29,245 nt of DNA from a virus. Lineage: Duplodnaviria > Heunggongvirae > Uroviricota > Caudoviricetes. This document shows positions 1 to 9,940 of this stretch, one piece after another. The position numbers and the translations under genes are program-made. Every line of letters begins with the position of its first letter. The first letter of the stretch is position 1. The notes under the pieces were generated by a model. That model was not told where the DNA came from and ran no database searches. It saw nothing but the letters and a program-made list of their open reading frames with translations. The stretch spans positions 1-29,245 of IMG/VR virus record IMGVR_UViG_2778261122_000007; one strand, given 5' to 3'.

Positions 1-567
1 TATCGCGTCCTCAACAATGAATTTTGTGATGCGGTGCCTGGTGCCTCCAGGTGACGTTAACCAGTTAACAATTAACGCCGGATACAGAGAATCCACCCAT
101 GACACTGTTTTTGGTTTTAACTGTTCCGCGTGCGCTCAGCCGCATTCACCGCATCACAAAATTCACTTTAAAAAGGGCGGCAGAGCAGTCACGGAGTAAA
201 ACTGATACCGCCAAACGTCACCAGAAAATTGATAACAGAGGGCGTTGCAGCGGGGTTGTCACTTAAGCGTATGGTCAACCTGACAACCCGGTGTCCTCAA
301 CGGGGAAGGAATAACCCCGCCATACTTACCGTCGCGCCATTTCGCGGAGTGCCACAACCGGAAGCGCACGGTCGAAGAAAATTTAACGACAGACTATCTA
401 TGAACCAGCAACCTCGCCGTGCGCTTTCGCGTTATGCTCTGACTTTTCAGGGAAATATCCTTTCAGTAAACTGTCAGTGCCGGATGCTGACCCGTGTCCG
501 GCGCACGCACTCCACCTCACCCGTGGAGAACTCCTTAATTACCAACCTTAGCTTCGTTGGTTAGCTA

Positions 568-4527: not shown

Positions 4528-5034
4528 TTATTTCTTTGCAGCCAGAATCAGGCCGTCAAGCCACTCCTGGTGACCATTGAGCATTGGGTTCGGACGAGTA
4601 TTTGCCAGGTCTTTTGCTGGAACTCCGTTCTGCGTTTCCTGTGTCAGGATACGGAGTCTGTTACCCGAGAGTTCCTCCAGTAGCCACGCATGATGAACAT
4701 CTAGGCGTTGTACAGTATCTTTTTCACCGGACCATCCGTGCCATGCCAAACGAGCAGGTTTACCTTCAGTAGGTGGAATAAATTCCACGACCTGAGCTTC
4801 AACCGGAAATCCAAATGTGCTGAAGTAAAAGCGCACGCCATTTTCCAGCTCCGGACCTTTATTGTTATAAAAGCGCACATCTGCTGAATTTTTATAGTAT
4901 TCCGGCCATAGTAATGGCTGACTAAGGAGTGGCCAAACATCATTGATGTTCAGACCGGAGATGATCATTTCATTAGACACAAAGTTATCAGTAAATCCCG
5001 GAACAAAGCCTTCTGGCCAGTGAATAGCGTTCAT
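4528..5034 (-). CDS. SRPBCC (Bet v1-like / polyketide cyclase-like) family protein
   Basis: 168 aa from ATG at 5034 (GGAGG Shine-Dalgarno on the reverse strand; the track ORF starts at TTG 5046); aromatic-rich composition typical of SRPBCC ligand-binding folds; family assigned by recognition, not by search. Confidence 0.7.
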   Translation of the reverse strand: MNAIHWPEGFVPGFTDNFVSNEMIISGLNINDVWPLLSQPLLWPEYYKNSADVRFYNNKGPELENGVRFYFSTFGFPVEAQVVEFIPPTEGKPARLAWHGWSGEKDTVQRLDVHHAWLLEELSGNRLRILTQETQNGVPAKDLANTRPNPMLNGHQEWLDGLILAAKK

Positions 5035-5169
5035 AAATGCCTCCAATTGCGGTAGTTAATTGTACTGGGTTTGCTGCGTTACGACCGCAACACGATGGCA
5101 GTGATTATTAGCGCAATGAAGTTATAAGGCGAATTATGATTACTTATAATCTTAATAAGATAAATTATA

Positions 5170-6078
5170 TCAGGAGCCAGTATCTTGGCTAACTTCTACG
5201 CATAAAGCCCGAATCCACTGATGGCTAGGGTCACGATGAGTTCGTTCATGCCAGGCCATACTCTTGGTAAAGCCCGGAACTTTCAGGGGCAAAGGGAGTA
5301 TGATTAGATCGTTGTTAGTCAGGACCATGCGGTGGGGGACAACAGCGATCATATCAGTCACTTGCAATATATCAGGAACTACTTGAAAACTATTAACTGA
5401 CATGCCTACTCGTCGTGTCAGACTGAGCTTAGCCAGTGCTTCATCTGTAACACCGGAGAAGCTACCTTCTGAAGACACCAGAATATGTTCCTGTTTGCAA
5501 AATTGTTCGAGAGTCATTTCTGAATTCGCTGACAACGGATGATTCCGTCGTGCTATGCAAACATAATCTTCTTCATAAAGTGCTCTGCCGTGCAGCTCTC
5601 CGGGAGTGGTTTGTGGTGTTACCAAAGCCAGATCAACTTCTCCCTGAGATAACTGCTGATATATTCGTTTATTGTCTACAGGCCGCACAGAGATTTTAAT
5701 ATTCGGTGCTCGATGTTTCAGCGCAGCCATCAATGGGACAACAACAGCCTTAACTGCATAGTCCGTTGCGACAATGGTATAAGTTAGTTCTGCCGTCATG
5801 GGGTCAAATTTACTTGGTTTCAGCAGAATCGCGATATCGGTGAGAATTTGTTTTACCGGCATAGCAAGCTCTTTGGCACGTAGTGTGGGAACCATACCGT
5901 GACTGGTGCGAACAAAGAGAGGATCGCAAAAATAATCACGTAATCGAATAAGCATGCCACTGACAGCGGGCTGCGTCAGGGAGAGTCGCTGCGCAGCCCG
6001 AGTCACGCTTCCCTCATCCATTAACGCATCAAAGGTCTTAAGTAAGTTAAGGTCGAGGGTTTTGATATCATTTTTCAT
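5170..6078 (-). CDS. LysR-family transcriptional regulator
   Basis: 302 aa; canonical LysR N-terminal HTH (LNLLKTFDALMDEGSVTRAAQRLSLTQPAVSGMLIRLRDYF) followed by a substrate-binding domain. Confidence 0.9.
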   Translation of the reverse strand: MKNDIKTLDLNLLKTFDALMDEGSVTRAAQRLSLTQPAVSGMLIRLRDYFCDPLFVRTSHGMVPTLRAKELAMPVKQILTDIAILLKPSKFDPMTAELTYTIVATDYAVKAVVVPLMAALKHRAPNIKISVRPVDNKRIYQQLSQGEVDLALVTPQTTPGELHGRALYEEDYVCIARRNHPLSANSEMTLEQFCKQEHILVSSEGSFSGVTDEALAKLSLTRRVGMSVNSFQVVPDILQVTDMIAVVPHRMVLTNNDLIILPLPLKVPGFTKSMAWHERTHRDPSHQWIRALCVEVSQDTGS

Positions 6079-6409
6079 AATGAGGTCACCTGACAGATAT
6101 AAAAATGTTGATTGAGGCTAATTGCCCCGATGAAGGTTGTCGAGGGGAACCAGGAGTTTTTTCTTTTGGGTGATTTCCATTGCTGGATAGTTCCCTTGTA
6201 CAGATAAGTCCGTTCTTCGCACAAAGCGGACTGGAAGGTTAGCTTGAGTCGGACTTTGCGTATTAGAAGAAGTGCTGGTGGTGACTGGTTCTTGAGCCCC
6301 ATTTCCCCAGAAAAAATCAGAGAAACTATACCCAATAGTTGTATTGATTCACTGACGAGACGGCCTCATATTGATAGGGACTAGTGTGCATCCAATACAG
6401 GAGGTTGTT

Positions 6410-6499
6410 GTGCTGGTTCTCAAATGTGCGCTGGCTATTGCGGCTGTAATGGCAATTTATTGTCTTTCTGTTGTTCTTATGGATCGCCTTTCTGATTGA
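6410..6499 (+). CDS. candidate small hydrophobic membrane peptide (29 aa; MLVLKCALAIAAVMAIYCLSVVLMDRLSD)
   Basis: Not in the ORF track (shorter than 60 aa). Strong CAGGAGG Shine-Dalgarno at 6398-6404, 5 nt before GTG 6410; single predicted transmembrane helix; lies upstream of hok. Confidence 0.35.
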   Translation: MLVLKCALAIAAVMAIYCLSVVLMDRLSD

Positions 6500-6653
6500 T
6501 TTCATATTGGCGAGGTAACGGTAGTTAAGTAGAATTGCTGCGGGTGCTTGAGGCTATCTGCCTCGGGCATGAACACCAACGGCAGATAGAGAAAAGCCCC
6601 AGTTAACATTACGCGTCCTGCAAGACGTTTAACATTAATCTGAGGCCATATCT

Positions 6654-6713
6654 ATGCGACACATAGAGATTAGCCTCTTACGGACCGAAAGGTCAAGGAG
6701 AAGCAGGCTATGA
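6654..6713 (+). CDS. mok-like leader ORF (19 codons) translationally coupled to hok
   Basis: ATG 6654 to TGA 6711-6713; the stop overlaps the hok start (ctATGa). Classic mok is longer, so this is an inference. Confidence 0.3.
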   Translation: MRHIEISLLRTERSRRSRL

Positions 6714-6865
6714 AGCAGCAAAAGGCGATGCTAATCGCCCTGATCGTCATCTGTTTAACCGTCATAGTGACGGCACTGGTAACGAGGAAAGACCTCTGCG
6801 AGGTACGAATCCGAACCGGCCAGACGGAGGTCGCTGTCTTCACAGCTTACGAACCTGAGGAGTAA
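6710..6865 (+). CDS. hok: Hok/Gef-family type I toxin (51 aa), HokD/RelF-like
   Basis: Not in the ORF track. Translation MKQQKAMLIALIVICLTVIVTALVTRKDLCEVRIRTGQTEVAVFTAYEPEE has the Hok signature (TM helix, TRK.LCE.R motif, conserved Cys); matches HokD as I recall it; structured leader upstream and terminator downstream. Confidence 0.85.
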   Translation: MKQQKAMLIALIVICLTVIVTALVTRKDLCEVRIRTGQTEVAVFTAYEPEE

Positions 6866-6933
6866 GAGACCAGGCGGGGGAGAAATCCCTCGCCACCTCT
6901 GATGTGTCAGGCATCCTCAACGCACCCGCACTT

Positions 6934-6960
6934 AACCCGCTTCGGCGGGTTTTGTTTTTT
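6934..6960 (+). terminator. rho-independent terminator downstream of hok
   Basis: AACCCGC-TTCG-GCGGGTT hairpin followed by TTTGTTTTTT. Confidence 0.7.
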
Positions 6961-7032
6961 CCTAGCATTCTGGTTTACAATTCGCACGCCAGCCTGAACA
7001 ACTGGCACCTGCTGCGCCAGCAGAGACAACCG

Positions 7033-7311
7033 ATGGCGCGCGATACCAAATTACACAATTCTAATGATTCTGCCGTCTTTGCCAGCAGGTGCGGACGGCG
7101 TTTTCACGCATTCAAATCAGACTGGTTCCAGCATCCTCCATGCACTGAAGAGCAGGCTGAATGGATAATTCAGTGTTACCGCAGGCGTGGATACGAGGTT
7201 AAGAAAGCTCTTAGTCTCGACTATCGTCACTGGATAATCTCAGTCAGACTCCCTTACTCCGAACGCCCACCGCGTCCGTCCCGCACATTCCAGCAACGGA
7301 TTTGGAGGTAA
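7033..7311 (+). CDS. hypothetical protein (92 aa), rem-like by position between hok and the DUF968 gene
   Basis: The track ORF 6904-7311 spans the hok terminator, so the first ATG after it (7033) is used; the hok-rem-ydfU-Q order is as I recall it for Qin. Start and identity are uncertain. Confidence 0.4.
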   Translation: MARDTKLHNSNDSAVFASRCGRRFHAFKSDWFQHPPCTEEQAEWIIQCYRRRGYEVKKALSLDYRHWIISVRLPYSERPPRPSRTFQQRIWR

Positions 7312-9630: not shown

Positions 9631-9706
9631 GGCCCTTTAGCTCAGTGGTGAGAGCGAGCGACTCATAATCGCCAGGTCGCTGGTTCAAATCCAGCAAGGG
9701 CCACCA
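9631..9706 (+). tRNA. tRNA with CAU anticodon, Ile2 (lysidine) type, ileX/ileZ-like
   Basis: Manual cloverleaf: acceptor GGCCCTT/AAGGGCC, anticodon arm GCGACTCATAATCGC, T-loop TTCAAAT, encoded CCA; very close to my recollection of E. coli ileX. Confidence 0.8.
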
Positions 9707-9707
9707 A

Positions 9708-9784
9708 CCGCCACTAGCTCATCAGGAAAGAGCGTCAACCCTTTAAGTTGAGTGTGCGAGGTTCGAGTCCCCGGTGGCGGTCCA
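9708..9784 (+). tRNA. tRNA-like gene, anticodon loop CCUUUAA (apparent anticodon UUU, Lys); non-canonical C33 and an A-C mismatch in the T-stem
   Basis: Manual fold: acceptor CCGCCAC/GTGGCGG, D-arm GCTC/GAGC, anticodon stem TCAAC/GTTGA, T-loop TTCGAGT, encoded CCA. Identity is uncertain; it could be a degenerate or specialised tRNA. Confidence 0.5.
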
Positions 9785-9786
9785 GT

Positions 9787-9862
<76 letters not shown>

Positions 9863-9865
9863 TAT

Positions 9866-9940
<75 letters not shown>

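Follow-up and report, generated by a model that had tools for sequence, protein, structure and literature searches.

A hok locus in an Escherichia coli lambdoid prophage with the elements of a hok/mok/sok module and a leader reading frame of 19 codons

Introduction

What is a hok toxin gene doing in a phage genome when the reading frame in front of it is only 19 codons long and the relBE genes that precede its closest K-12 relative are missing? The locus that raises this question lies in a stretch of viral DNA of 29,245 nucleotides (IMG/VR record IMGVR_UViG_2778261122_000007, positions 1 to 29,245; hereafter the window). Judged by gene content, the window is part of an E. coli lambdoid prophage, with DicF, dicB-type genes, a replication module, a DUF968–RusA–Q block, four tRNA genes, lysis genes, and terminase. 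A first-pass annotation, made from the letters alone, had pointed to a short Hok/Gef-family reading frame with a mok-like upstream frame, an inverted repeat in the leader, and a terminator of its own, and had expected an antisense RNA on the opposite strand.

Here, we compare the locus with related loci from phages and bacteria, fold its RNAs, and measure where it varies. We conclude, with a probability that we put at about 0.88, that positions 6507–6960 form a complete hok/mok/sok type I toxin–antitoxin module of the hokD/hokW lineage, residing in a lambdoid prophage. The locus is ordinary apart from carrying a minority allele in which the leader reading frame is cut to 19 codons.

Results

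The toxin gene and its setting

The 51-residue product of the toxin reading frame (MKQQKAMLIALIVICLTVIVTALVTRKDLCEVRIRTGQTEVAVFTAYEPEE) matches the Pfam family HOK_GEF (PF01848) with an E-value of 1.2e-23 and 82.9 bits against a cutoff of 22, and the coordinates that the first-pass annotation had given for a 51-codon Hok/Gef frame are right (Table 1). The alignment to HokD that it had called for shows 100% amino acid identity to HokD (RelF) of E. coli K-12; the two coding sequences differ at one base, which is synonymous. With 51 codons the frame falls below the 60-residue default of the ORF listing, yet NCBI PGAP calls the gene, and PGAP/RefSeq annotates hokD in near-identical genomes as "type I toxin-antitoxin system toxin HokD". 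A query of 801 nt has its nearest match in E. coli ChlosBP-23-1 (99.6% over 801 nt), is covered to at least 80% in 1,433 genomes, and finds some match in 4,796 of 5,426 complete E. coli genomes.

The module sits between accessory cargo genes and the DUF968–RusA–Q late-regulation block. Its 5' neighbor is a LysR regulator gene (5170–6078, minus strand) plus unannotated DNA, and relBE was not found upstream of hok within the window, in agreement with the earlier reading of the sequence. Comparison of related loci bounds the conserved segment at ~6530 and ~6955. A 42-residue ORF at 6371–6499 was considered as part of the module and rejected, because conservation among hok loci starts only at ~6530.

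Table 1. Features of the hok locus, in order of position in the window. Strands are given where they apply; the extents of the full-length mRNA and of Sok are predicted.
Feature	Position	Strand	Remarks
hok mRNA promoter	6507–6535	+	−35 TTGGCG 6507–6512, 17-nt spacer, −10 TAGAAT 6530–6535
hok mRNA, full-length, ~417 nt	6542–6958	+	start inferred from promoter and from position 1 of the Rfam model
tac (translational activator element)	6542–6553	+	GGGUGCUUGAGG; first 12 nt of the mRNA
5' leader hairpin	6554–6589	+	inverted repeat CTATCTGCC 6554–6562 / GGCAGATAG 6581–6589
Sok-type antisense RNA, putative, ~71 nt	6590–6662	−	placed from its fold, the size of sokW, and the position of sokC
ucb / anti-SD GCCCC	6596–6600	+	sequesters the mok SD in the closed fold; role follows R1 (PMC9841398)
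mok Shine–Dalgarno (SD) GAGG	6642–6645	+	8 nt upstream of ATG 6654
Hypervariable patch, 23 nt	6647–6669		stem and loop of the Sok-target hairpin around the mok ATG
mok-type leader ORF	6654–6713	+	19 codons, MRHIEISLLRTERSRRSRL; stop TGA 6711–6713
Sok promoter, putative	6667–6696	−	−35 TTGACC 6696→6691, 18-nt spacer, −10 TAATCT 6672→6667
dcb GCCUC	6673–6677	+	pairs with mok SD region GAGGC 6642–6646 in the open/target hairpin
hok Shine–Dalgarno (SD) GGAG	6697–6700	+	within AAGGAGAAG 6695–6703; read from sequence
hok CDS	6710–6865	+	ATG 6710 to TAA 6863–6865; 51 codons; Pfam, K-12 identity, PGAP
3'-UTR hairpin	6873–6894	+	GGCGGGGGA-GAAA-UCCCUCGCC; forms in full-length and truncated folds
fbi (fold-back inhibitory element)	6915–6927	+	CCUCAACGCACCC; complementary to tac
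Intrinsic terminator of hok mRNA	6934–6960	+	stem-loop 6934–6951, then T run

The mRNA and its closed and open folds

Every named element of a hok locus is present in the sequence: the promoter, tac, ucb, the mok SD and ATG, dcb, the hok SD, the 3' hairpin, fbi, and the terminator. The promoter is of the sigma-70 type, scores 9/12 in a consensus scan, and is positioned for a start at ~6542; its −10 is conserved across loci, whereas the sequence 5' of ~6530 is not. The Rfam family RF01794 ("sok") matches 6542–6712 on the plus strand at full length (model 1–157; 101.3 bits against a gathering score of 59, E = 3.7e-22), with model position 1 aligned to 6542. Because it matches on the plus strand and has the hok AUG at its end, the model as built describes the leader of the hok mRNA, to which Sok is the antisense.

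The RNA 6542–6958 has a minimum free energy (MFE) of −173.9 kcal/mol (z = −9.3); taken with the Pfam and Rfam scores, this puts the locus well outside the range of chance. In this predicted fold, tac forms a 12-bp helix with fbi, the ucb region 6596–6602 pairs with 6640–6646, and the hok SD is paired with 6676–6680. Folding for tac/fbi-type elements, a check that had been suggested earlier, thus returns a tac–fbi helix, and the modeled structure corresponds to the closed, untranslatable conformation known for the R1 hok mRNA (PMC9841398).

The closed structure is 96.3% paired across 73 distinct loci, with compensatory change at 14 pairs. Its tac–fbi helix is 99.5% paired and does not vary in that set, so that covariation between the two arms was sought within the hokD set without result; one compensatory change, U4:A versus C4:G, appears once R1-type, hokC, and Photorhabdus loci are added. 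The inverted repeat that had caught the eye at about 6554–6591 was recovered as the core of the conserved 5' helix of the hok leader, which is 98.6% paired in the 73 loci and shows compensatory AU→GC (5 sequences) and CG→UA (2 sequences) changes. The 3'-UTR hairpin is 98.8% paired in the same set, with GU/AU/GC variation and a GC→AU compensatory change, and by analogy with R1 it is likely to be the protective 3' stem-loop, that is, the 3' end of the processed mRNA (PMC9841398). The strong terminator proposed at the end of the locus is indeed a stem-loop followed by a T run, and homology with K-12 and other loci stops there. As for the other elements, ucb is invariant in the 73 loci and in four subfamilies, and the pairing of dcb with the mok SD region is part of the Rfam consensus structure, its pairs being 100% conserved. 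Conservation of tac and ucb, of the SD and ATG of mok, of dcb (GCCUCUUAC), and of the hok SD extends to R1-type, hokC, and Photorhabdus loci; among related loci and subfamilies the hok SD does not vary.

When the leader 6542–6712 is folded in isolation, tac changes its partner and pairs with ucb (6594–6600), which is the defining helix of the open form. The open form was not obtained in the MFE of the 3'-truncated RNA 6542–6912, which instead shows a 5' local hairpin resembling the metastable structure of nascent mRNA and keeps the mok SD paired with ucb. In silico, then, the switch is reproduced only in part. The Rfam-derived open structure is only 75.5% paired on the 73-locus alignment, because indel-bearing alleles are out of register with the hairpin of the window; folding the alleles singly resolved this.

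The putative Sok antisense RNA

The promoter of the expected antisense RNA had been described as impossible to locate by eye. It can be placed by homology, on the minus strand (Table 1), but a simple consensus promoter scan of the window did not call it either, and we therefore infer Sok from its relatives. The putative −10, TAATCT, is weak. All 21 alleles of the region carry either the majority hexamers TTGCCT-17-TAACCT or, like the window, TTGACC-18-TAATCT, and the key −10 positions are invariant (pi = 0).

Two routes lead to nearly the same start: 7 nt past the −10 is ~6660, and K-12 sokC, annotated on the opposite strand with its start 9 nt inside mokC, maps to ~6662. An RNA from ~6660–6662 to ~6590 would be ~71 nt long; sokW is reported as 71 nt and complementary to the hokW leader (PMC8621323). 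The predicted RNA would begin with a 5' single-stranded tail (~6660→6648), continue into a long hairpin (6647→6595), and close with a U-rich tail (6594→6588, UUUUCUCU), and the reverse strand from 6666 to 6588 folds with −29.5 kcal/mol (z = −5.0). Its homologues sokW and sokC are real RNAs (PMC8621323; K-12 annotation).

A diversity peak at the 5' end of the putative Sok

Nucleotide diversity (pi) by site class was measured among 68 loci that encode the identical Hok protein. It reaches 0.289 in the patch 6647–6669, against 0.012 at the 4-fold degenerate sites of hok and 0.05–0.08 at other unpaired positions, so that the patch is ~24 times more diverse than the 4-fold sites. Within it, the ATG (6654–6656) and the core of the Sok −10 have pi = 0. 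The patch also corresponds to nucleotides 1 to ~13 of Sok plus the discriminator of its promoter. Sok reportedly makes contact with the hok mRNA by way of its 5' single-stranded leader (Thisted et al. 1994, EMBO J 13:1960).

At least 21 patch alleles occur in 111 contigs, next to an identical toxin. They differ from one another at 1–5 of the first 16 nt of Sok, and all fold to the same hairpin (−10 to −14 kcal/mol), in which GAGGC/GCCUC forms the outer stem and the AUG tops the inner 5' arm; as all alleles keep the hairpin, its arms co-vary between alleles. Two earlier cases are of interest here: OrzO and OrzP are told apart by a 3-nt difference at the 5' end of the sRNA (PMC3919570), and the chromosomal Sok RNAs of K-12 do not repress R1 hok (PMC9841398). 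These precedents make diversifying selection for non-cross-reacting Sok/hok classes plausible, if unproven.

We consider it a tentative proposition, with the odds somewhat against it, that selection keeps the patch diverse and so maintains orthogonal Sok/hok specificity classes, that the indels in the patch shift the mok frame, and that the window carries a minimal mok working by termination–reinitiation. Relaxed constraint in an otherwise densely constrained locus remains the simpler alternative for the diversity. If selection were at work, specificity classes would let several lambdoid prophages with the same Hok coexist in one cell without cross-neutralization, and the movement of mok among all three frames would be a by-product of patch indels. 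Co-residence proved uninformative as a test of allele exclusion, since seven of eight same-genome pairs of loci carry different alleles and two loci taken at random do so in 88% of cases. Antisense specificity and cross-talk were expressly left aside in a recent survey of Hok diversity (bioRxiv 10.1101/2025.08.07.668861). A diversity peak beside an invariant toxin bears on both, among multi-copy type I systems, and its position at the Sok end is the only lead here that may be new.

The leader reading frame

The 19-codon frame upstream of hok, whose stop overlaps the hok start as ATGA just as had been stated at the outset, is mok. In alignments with R1-type, hokC, and Photorhabdus loci, ATG 6654 coincides with their mok ATG, and it never varies (pi = 0), although it lies inside the hypervariable patch; the GAGG upstream of it is likewise invariant (pi = 0) and is found in the same three kinds of loci, and it is the mok SD in R1 (PMC9841398). 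These observations bear out the suspected mok-like character of the frame, and the accompanying worry that classic mok is much longer dissolves on inspection of R1. There the mok AUG occupies nt 116–118 and the hok AUG nt 174–176 (PMC9841398), so that exactly 19 mok codons lie upstream of hok. Mutations in the R1 mok start codon and SD abolish toxicity, whereas mok stops placed 3' of the hok start have no such effect, and translation is required for no more than the first 19 codons (PMC9841398). Chance as the origin of the upstream ORF was rejected on account of the invariance of the ATG and its conserved spacing.

That spacing was surveyed in 80 IMG/VR loci with identical Hok and 53 loci from other species. 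The distance from the mok ATG to hok is always 56, 57, or 58 nt, from E. coli to Photorhabdus and Pantoea. A spacing of 57 nt puts mok in frame with hok, which gives the annotated 70-codon "MokW" and the 69-codon MokC of K-12; 58 nt gives an overlapping frame as in R1; and 56 nt gives 19 codons with the stop at AUGA, as any 56-nt allele must, because hok always starts AUGAA. A pattern scan of 111 distinct IMG/VR contigs found 57 nt in 94, 56 nt in 12, and 58 nt in 5, and the mok allele of the window itself is present in 12 of the 111. Compared with the majority, the window class has a T insertion (AAAGGTCAAGG) and a loop shorter by 2 nt. The T insertion alone leads to 58 nt, as in loci L093 and L094 (Kluyvera cryocrescens), and hokC-type loci of E. 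ruysiae and E. whittamii arrive at 56 nt via a different, 1-nt loop deletion.

The position of the mok start is thus conserved, but its frame, length, and peptide are not, which matches the view that it is mok translation, and not the Mok protein, that matters. The short mok of the window is a minority allele accounted for by known biology. It represents a minimal mok that occurs naturally; beyond the hok start, frame and length can vary freely. Coupling in the 56-nt allele would most simply proceed by termination–reinitiation, although a stop exactly at the hok start could in principle lower rather than preserve coupling.

A less favorable reading is that the locus is a decaying, non-functional copy in which the 56-nt spacing is a frameshift lesion, with mok truncated and the translation of Hok uncoupled or weakened, in the way that the five chromosomal hok loci of K-12 are thought to be inactivated. 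The 56-nt class is indeed a minority (12/111 contigs), K-12 hokD is itself a truncated remnant, and chromosomal hok loci are reported to be unable to mediate post-segregational killing (bioRxiv 10.1101/2025.08.07.668861). Yet every other element is intact and conserved, the allele of the window persists unchanged in many different prophage contexts, the 19-codon form arose independently in the hokC-type loci of E. ruysiae and E. whittamii, and the very change that gives the 56-nt spacing also improves the Sok −35 to TTGACC; we therefore regard decay as improbable. Least probable by a further step is that the 19-codon ORF goes untranslated, with Hok translated directly from a strong SD of its own (AAGGAG) while the ATG in the leader serves only as RNA sequence in the Sok-target hairpin: a good SD does stand 9 nt ahead of the hok ATG, and the leader peptide is not conserved and occurs in all three frames, but the ATG has pi = 0 while neighboring stem and loop positions vary freely and other triplets could keep the pairing, the invariant GAGG stands at ideal spacing, and the distance to hok is held at 56–58 nt from E. 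coli to Photorhabdus and Pantoea.

Discussion

Proposed mechanism and role

By homology with hok/sok of plasmid R1 and hokW-sokW of Sp5, a complete module of this kind would be expected to work as follows. A stable mRNA of ~417 nt would be made from the promoter at 6507–6535. In its full-length form the 5' tac would lie on the 3' fbi, ucb would cover the mok SD, and the hok SD would be paired, so that the mRNA would neither be translated nor bind Sok well. Slow 3' trimming to the hairpin 6873–6894 would remove fbi, upon which tac would switch to ucb and the mok SD and ATG would be presented in the target hairpin. The unstable Sok RNA of ~71 nt (~6660–6662 to 6590, minus strand) would then bind through its 5' tail, blocking mok initiation and leading to cleavage by RNase III. 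Once Sok is depleted, translation of the 19-codon mok ORF would carry ribosomes through the hok SD hairpin, melting it, and would end on the UGA overlapping the hok AUG; Hok would then be made and would depolarize the membrane.

As to its role, the module could help lysis after prophage induction, as hokW does, or could serve prophage retention or phage exclusion. In earlier tests, chromosomal hok loci failed to bring about post-segregational killing (summarized in bioRxiv 10.1101/2025.08.07.668861).

Significance

The feature is already known as a hokD/hokW-type module. As a finding it matters little, because hokD is annotated in RefSeq, the RNA is an Rfam family, and experiments have already been done on a prophage locus of 93% identity. 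What the window adds is, first, the form that the rearranged relBE–hokD remnant of K-12 had before truncation, and second, natural alleles that confirm the saturation mutagenesis of R1, in that the mok start and the first 19 codons are constrained, and not the frame or the length.

Comparison with known systems

The closest characterized relative is hokW-sokW of Sakai prophage 5 (VT2-Sakai, the Stx2 phage Sp5), with 92.8% nucleotide identity to the window over ~415 nt; several other phages are 94–96% identical to the window locus. HokW-sokW and the window share identical tac, ucb, SD, dcb, and fbi sequences, a lambdoid prophage as host replicon, a 51-residue toxin, and an antisense RNA of ~71 nt, which in the window is putative. 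HokW is 92% identical to the Hok of the window, with four C-terminal differences (T45V, A46D, P49S, E51K). The two loci differ in the leader, where hokW has a spacing of 57 nt and a "MokW" that is a 70-codon in-frame extension of HokW, whereas the window has 56 nt and a 19-codon ORF. They also carry different alleles of the Sok-target patch, different Sok promoters (TTGCCT-17-TAACCT in hokW-sokW versus TTGACC-18-TAATCT), and different terminators, and occupy different positions in the phage genome. HokW is toxic, and sokW driven by its own promoter neutralizes it (Takada et al. 2021, PMC8621323), the antitoxin activity of sokW depends partly on RNase III and Hfq, and hokW-sokW helps lysis after prophage induction (both PMC8621323). 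By analogy, the Hok of the window is probably toxic as well.

K-12 hokD (relF), in the cryptic prophage Qin, encodes a Hok identical to that of the window, and the two loci are near-identical over 6696–6960, which takes in the hok SD, the coding sequence, the 3' UTR, fbi, and the terminator. The homology sets in only at ~6696 (AGGAGAAGCAGGCTATG), ~16 nt short of the hok ATG, and extends as far as the terminator; in K-12, hokD lies directly downstream of relB-relE, which replace everything 5' of ~6696. Along with this upstream part, K-12 has lost the promoter, tac and ucb, the start of mok, and both the target and the gene of Sok. Its hokD is a remnant read through from relBE, whereas the window holds the complete autonomous module, which accounts for the absence of relBE remarked on in the first-pass annotation. 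A Qin-type relBE-hokD operon was rejected as a description of the window, since relBE is absent, the K-12 homology starts only at ~6696, and the full leader is in place. Downstream, both loci have the same kind of genes, DUF968/YdfU and then Q, but the gene between hok and DUF968 is rem in K-12 and an unrelated ORF in the window.

The type system, hok/mok/sok (parB) of plasmid R1, has all the named elements in the same order as the window. The two have in common the 19 mok codons upstream of hok, the mok SD GAGG, the dcb GCCUCUUAC, the pairing of the ends through tac and fbi, and the Rfam leader family. R1 Hok is diverged (HokW, which is 92% identical to the Hok of the window, is 44% identical to R1 Hok; PMC8621323), and R1 mok has 70 codons and overlaps hok out of frame with a spacing of 58 nt. 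R1 is plasmid-borne and acts in post-segregational killing, whereas the window locus is in a prophage; the R1 5' hairpin is longer, and its Sok hairpin shorter, than that of the window.

Finally, hokC/mokC/sokC (gef) of K-12 has the same architecture, in which mokC shares the frame of hokC and begins 57 nt upstream of it. HokC belongs to a different Hok subfamily (50 residues, ~82% identity), and its gene occupies a chromosomal, non-prophage site flanked by IS186, with a Sok hairpin shorter than that of the window. The hokC-type loci of E. ruysiae and E. whittamii, in turn, share with the window the 19-codon, AUGA-terminated form of the leader reading frame.

Strand of the Rfam model and variation within the hok locus

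RF01794, the family that Rfam calls 'sok antitoxin', has its match in the window on the sense strand, across the 5' part of the hok transcript, and its consensus finishes within the hok AUG. Because of the strand of this match and the end point of the consensus, the model depicts the leader of the hok mRNA in the open conformation rather than the antisense RNA. Strand calls based on RF01794 will place Sok on the wrong strand.

The leader itself exists in a second architecture. In a set of IMG/VR loci encoding an identical Hok protein (L023, L027, L034, L036, L064, L074, and L084), a shorter, unrelated segment stands in for window 6601-6641, the long segment of the Sok hairpin, and the distance from tac to hok is 147 nt, compared with ~169 nt otherwise. 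In this respect the alternative leader resembles hokC and R1 with their short hairpin. Within the coding sequence, the UACG motif formed by the Tyr47 codon UAC and the following G is without variation in all aligned loci. In hokB, a UACG-type site undergoes A-to-I editing by TadA, and the motif in the window is the same kind of site.

hokD sequences 96-100% identical to that of E. coli were also found on very short contigs of non-enterobacterial assemblies, namely of Acinetobacter idrijaensis (L100, 275 bp) and Xanthomonas pisi (L105, 431 bp). These most likely represent contamination of the assemblies by E. coli or prophage DNA, as may also be the case for a 2,995-bp contig of a MAG (L138).

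Features of the window in and around the hok module
Feature	Position	Strand	Remark
DicF sRNA gene	175-226	-	76.7 bits
'Polyketide cyclase' gene	within 4528-6078	-	label from nearest genome
LysR-family regulator	5170-6078	-	
Shine-Dalgarno AGGAGG of 29-codon ORF	6399-6404	+	strong
29-codon ORF, hydrophobic, unannotated	GTG 6410 to TGA 6497-6499	+	product V/MLVLKCALAIAAVMAIYCLSVVLMDRLSD
RF01794 match	6542-6712	+	
UACG motif in hok	6848-6851	+	
ORF unrelated to rem	~7033-7311	+	92-aa hypothetical protein in nearest genome
Four-tRNA gene cluster	9631-9937	+	Ile, Lys, Thr, Gly (annotation of nearest genome); downstream of Q antiterminator gene

Genes flanking the hok module

Directly 5' of the hok promoter lies a 29-codon ORF that could encode a small membrane protein. 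Its product has no matches in Pfam or NCBIfam; among homologues, the frame is retained and the few substitutions are conservative. A 200-bp stretch containing the ORF is carried, at a coverage of at least 80%, by 1,695 E. coli genomes, in which its annotation is almost always missing.

The LysR regulator and 'polyketide cyclase' genes form, on the minus strand, the cargo that separates hok from the prophage replication genes. Prophages that share this hok module have other genes in the slot. In K-12 Qin it is occupied by relBE, and in phage Evi by an acetyltransferase. Past the hok terminator (window 6961-7311), homology to Qin ends. Both the window and Qin then have the DUF968 gene, but the gene separating it from hok is rem in Qin and an unrelated ORF in the window.
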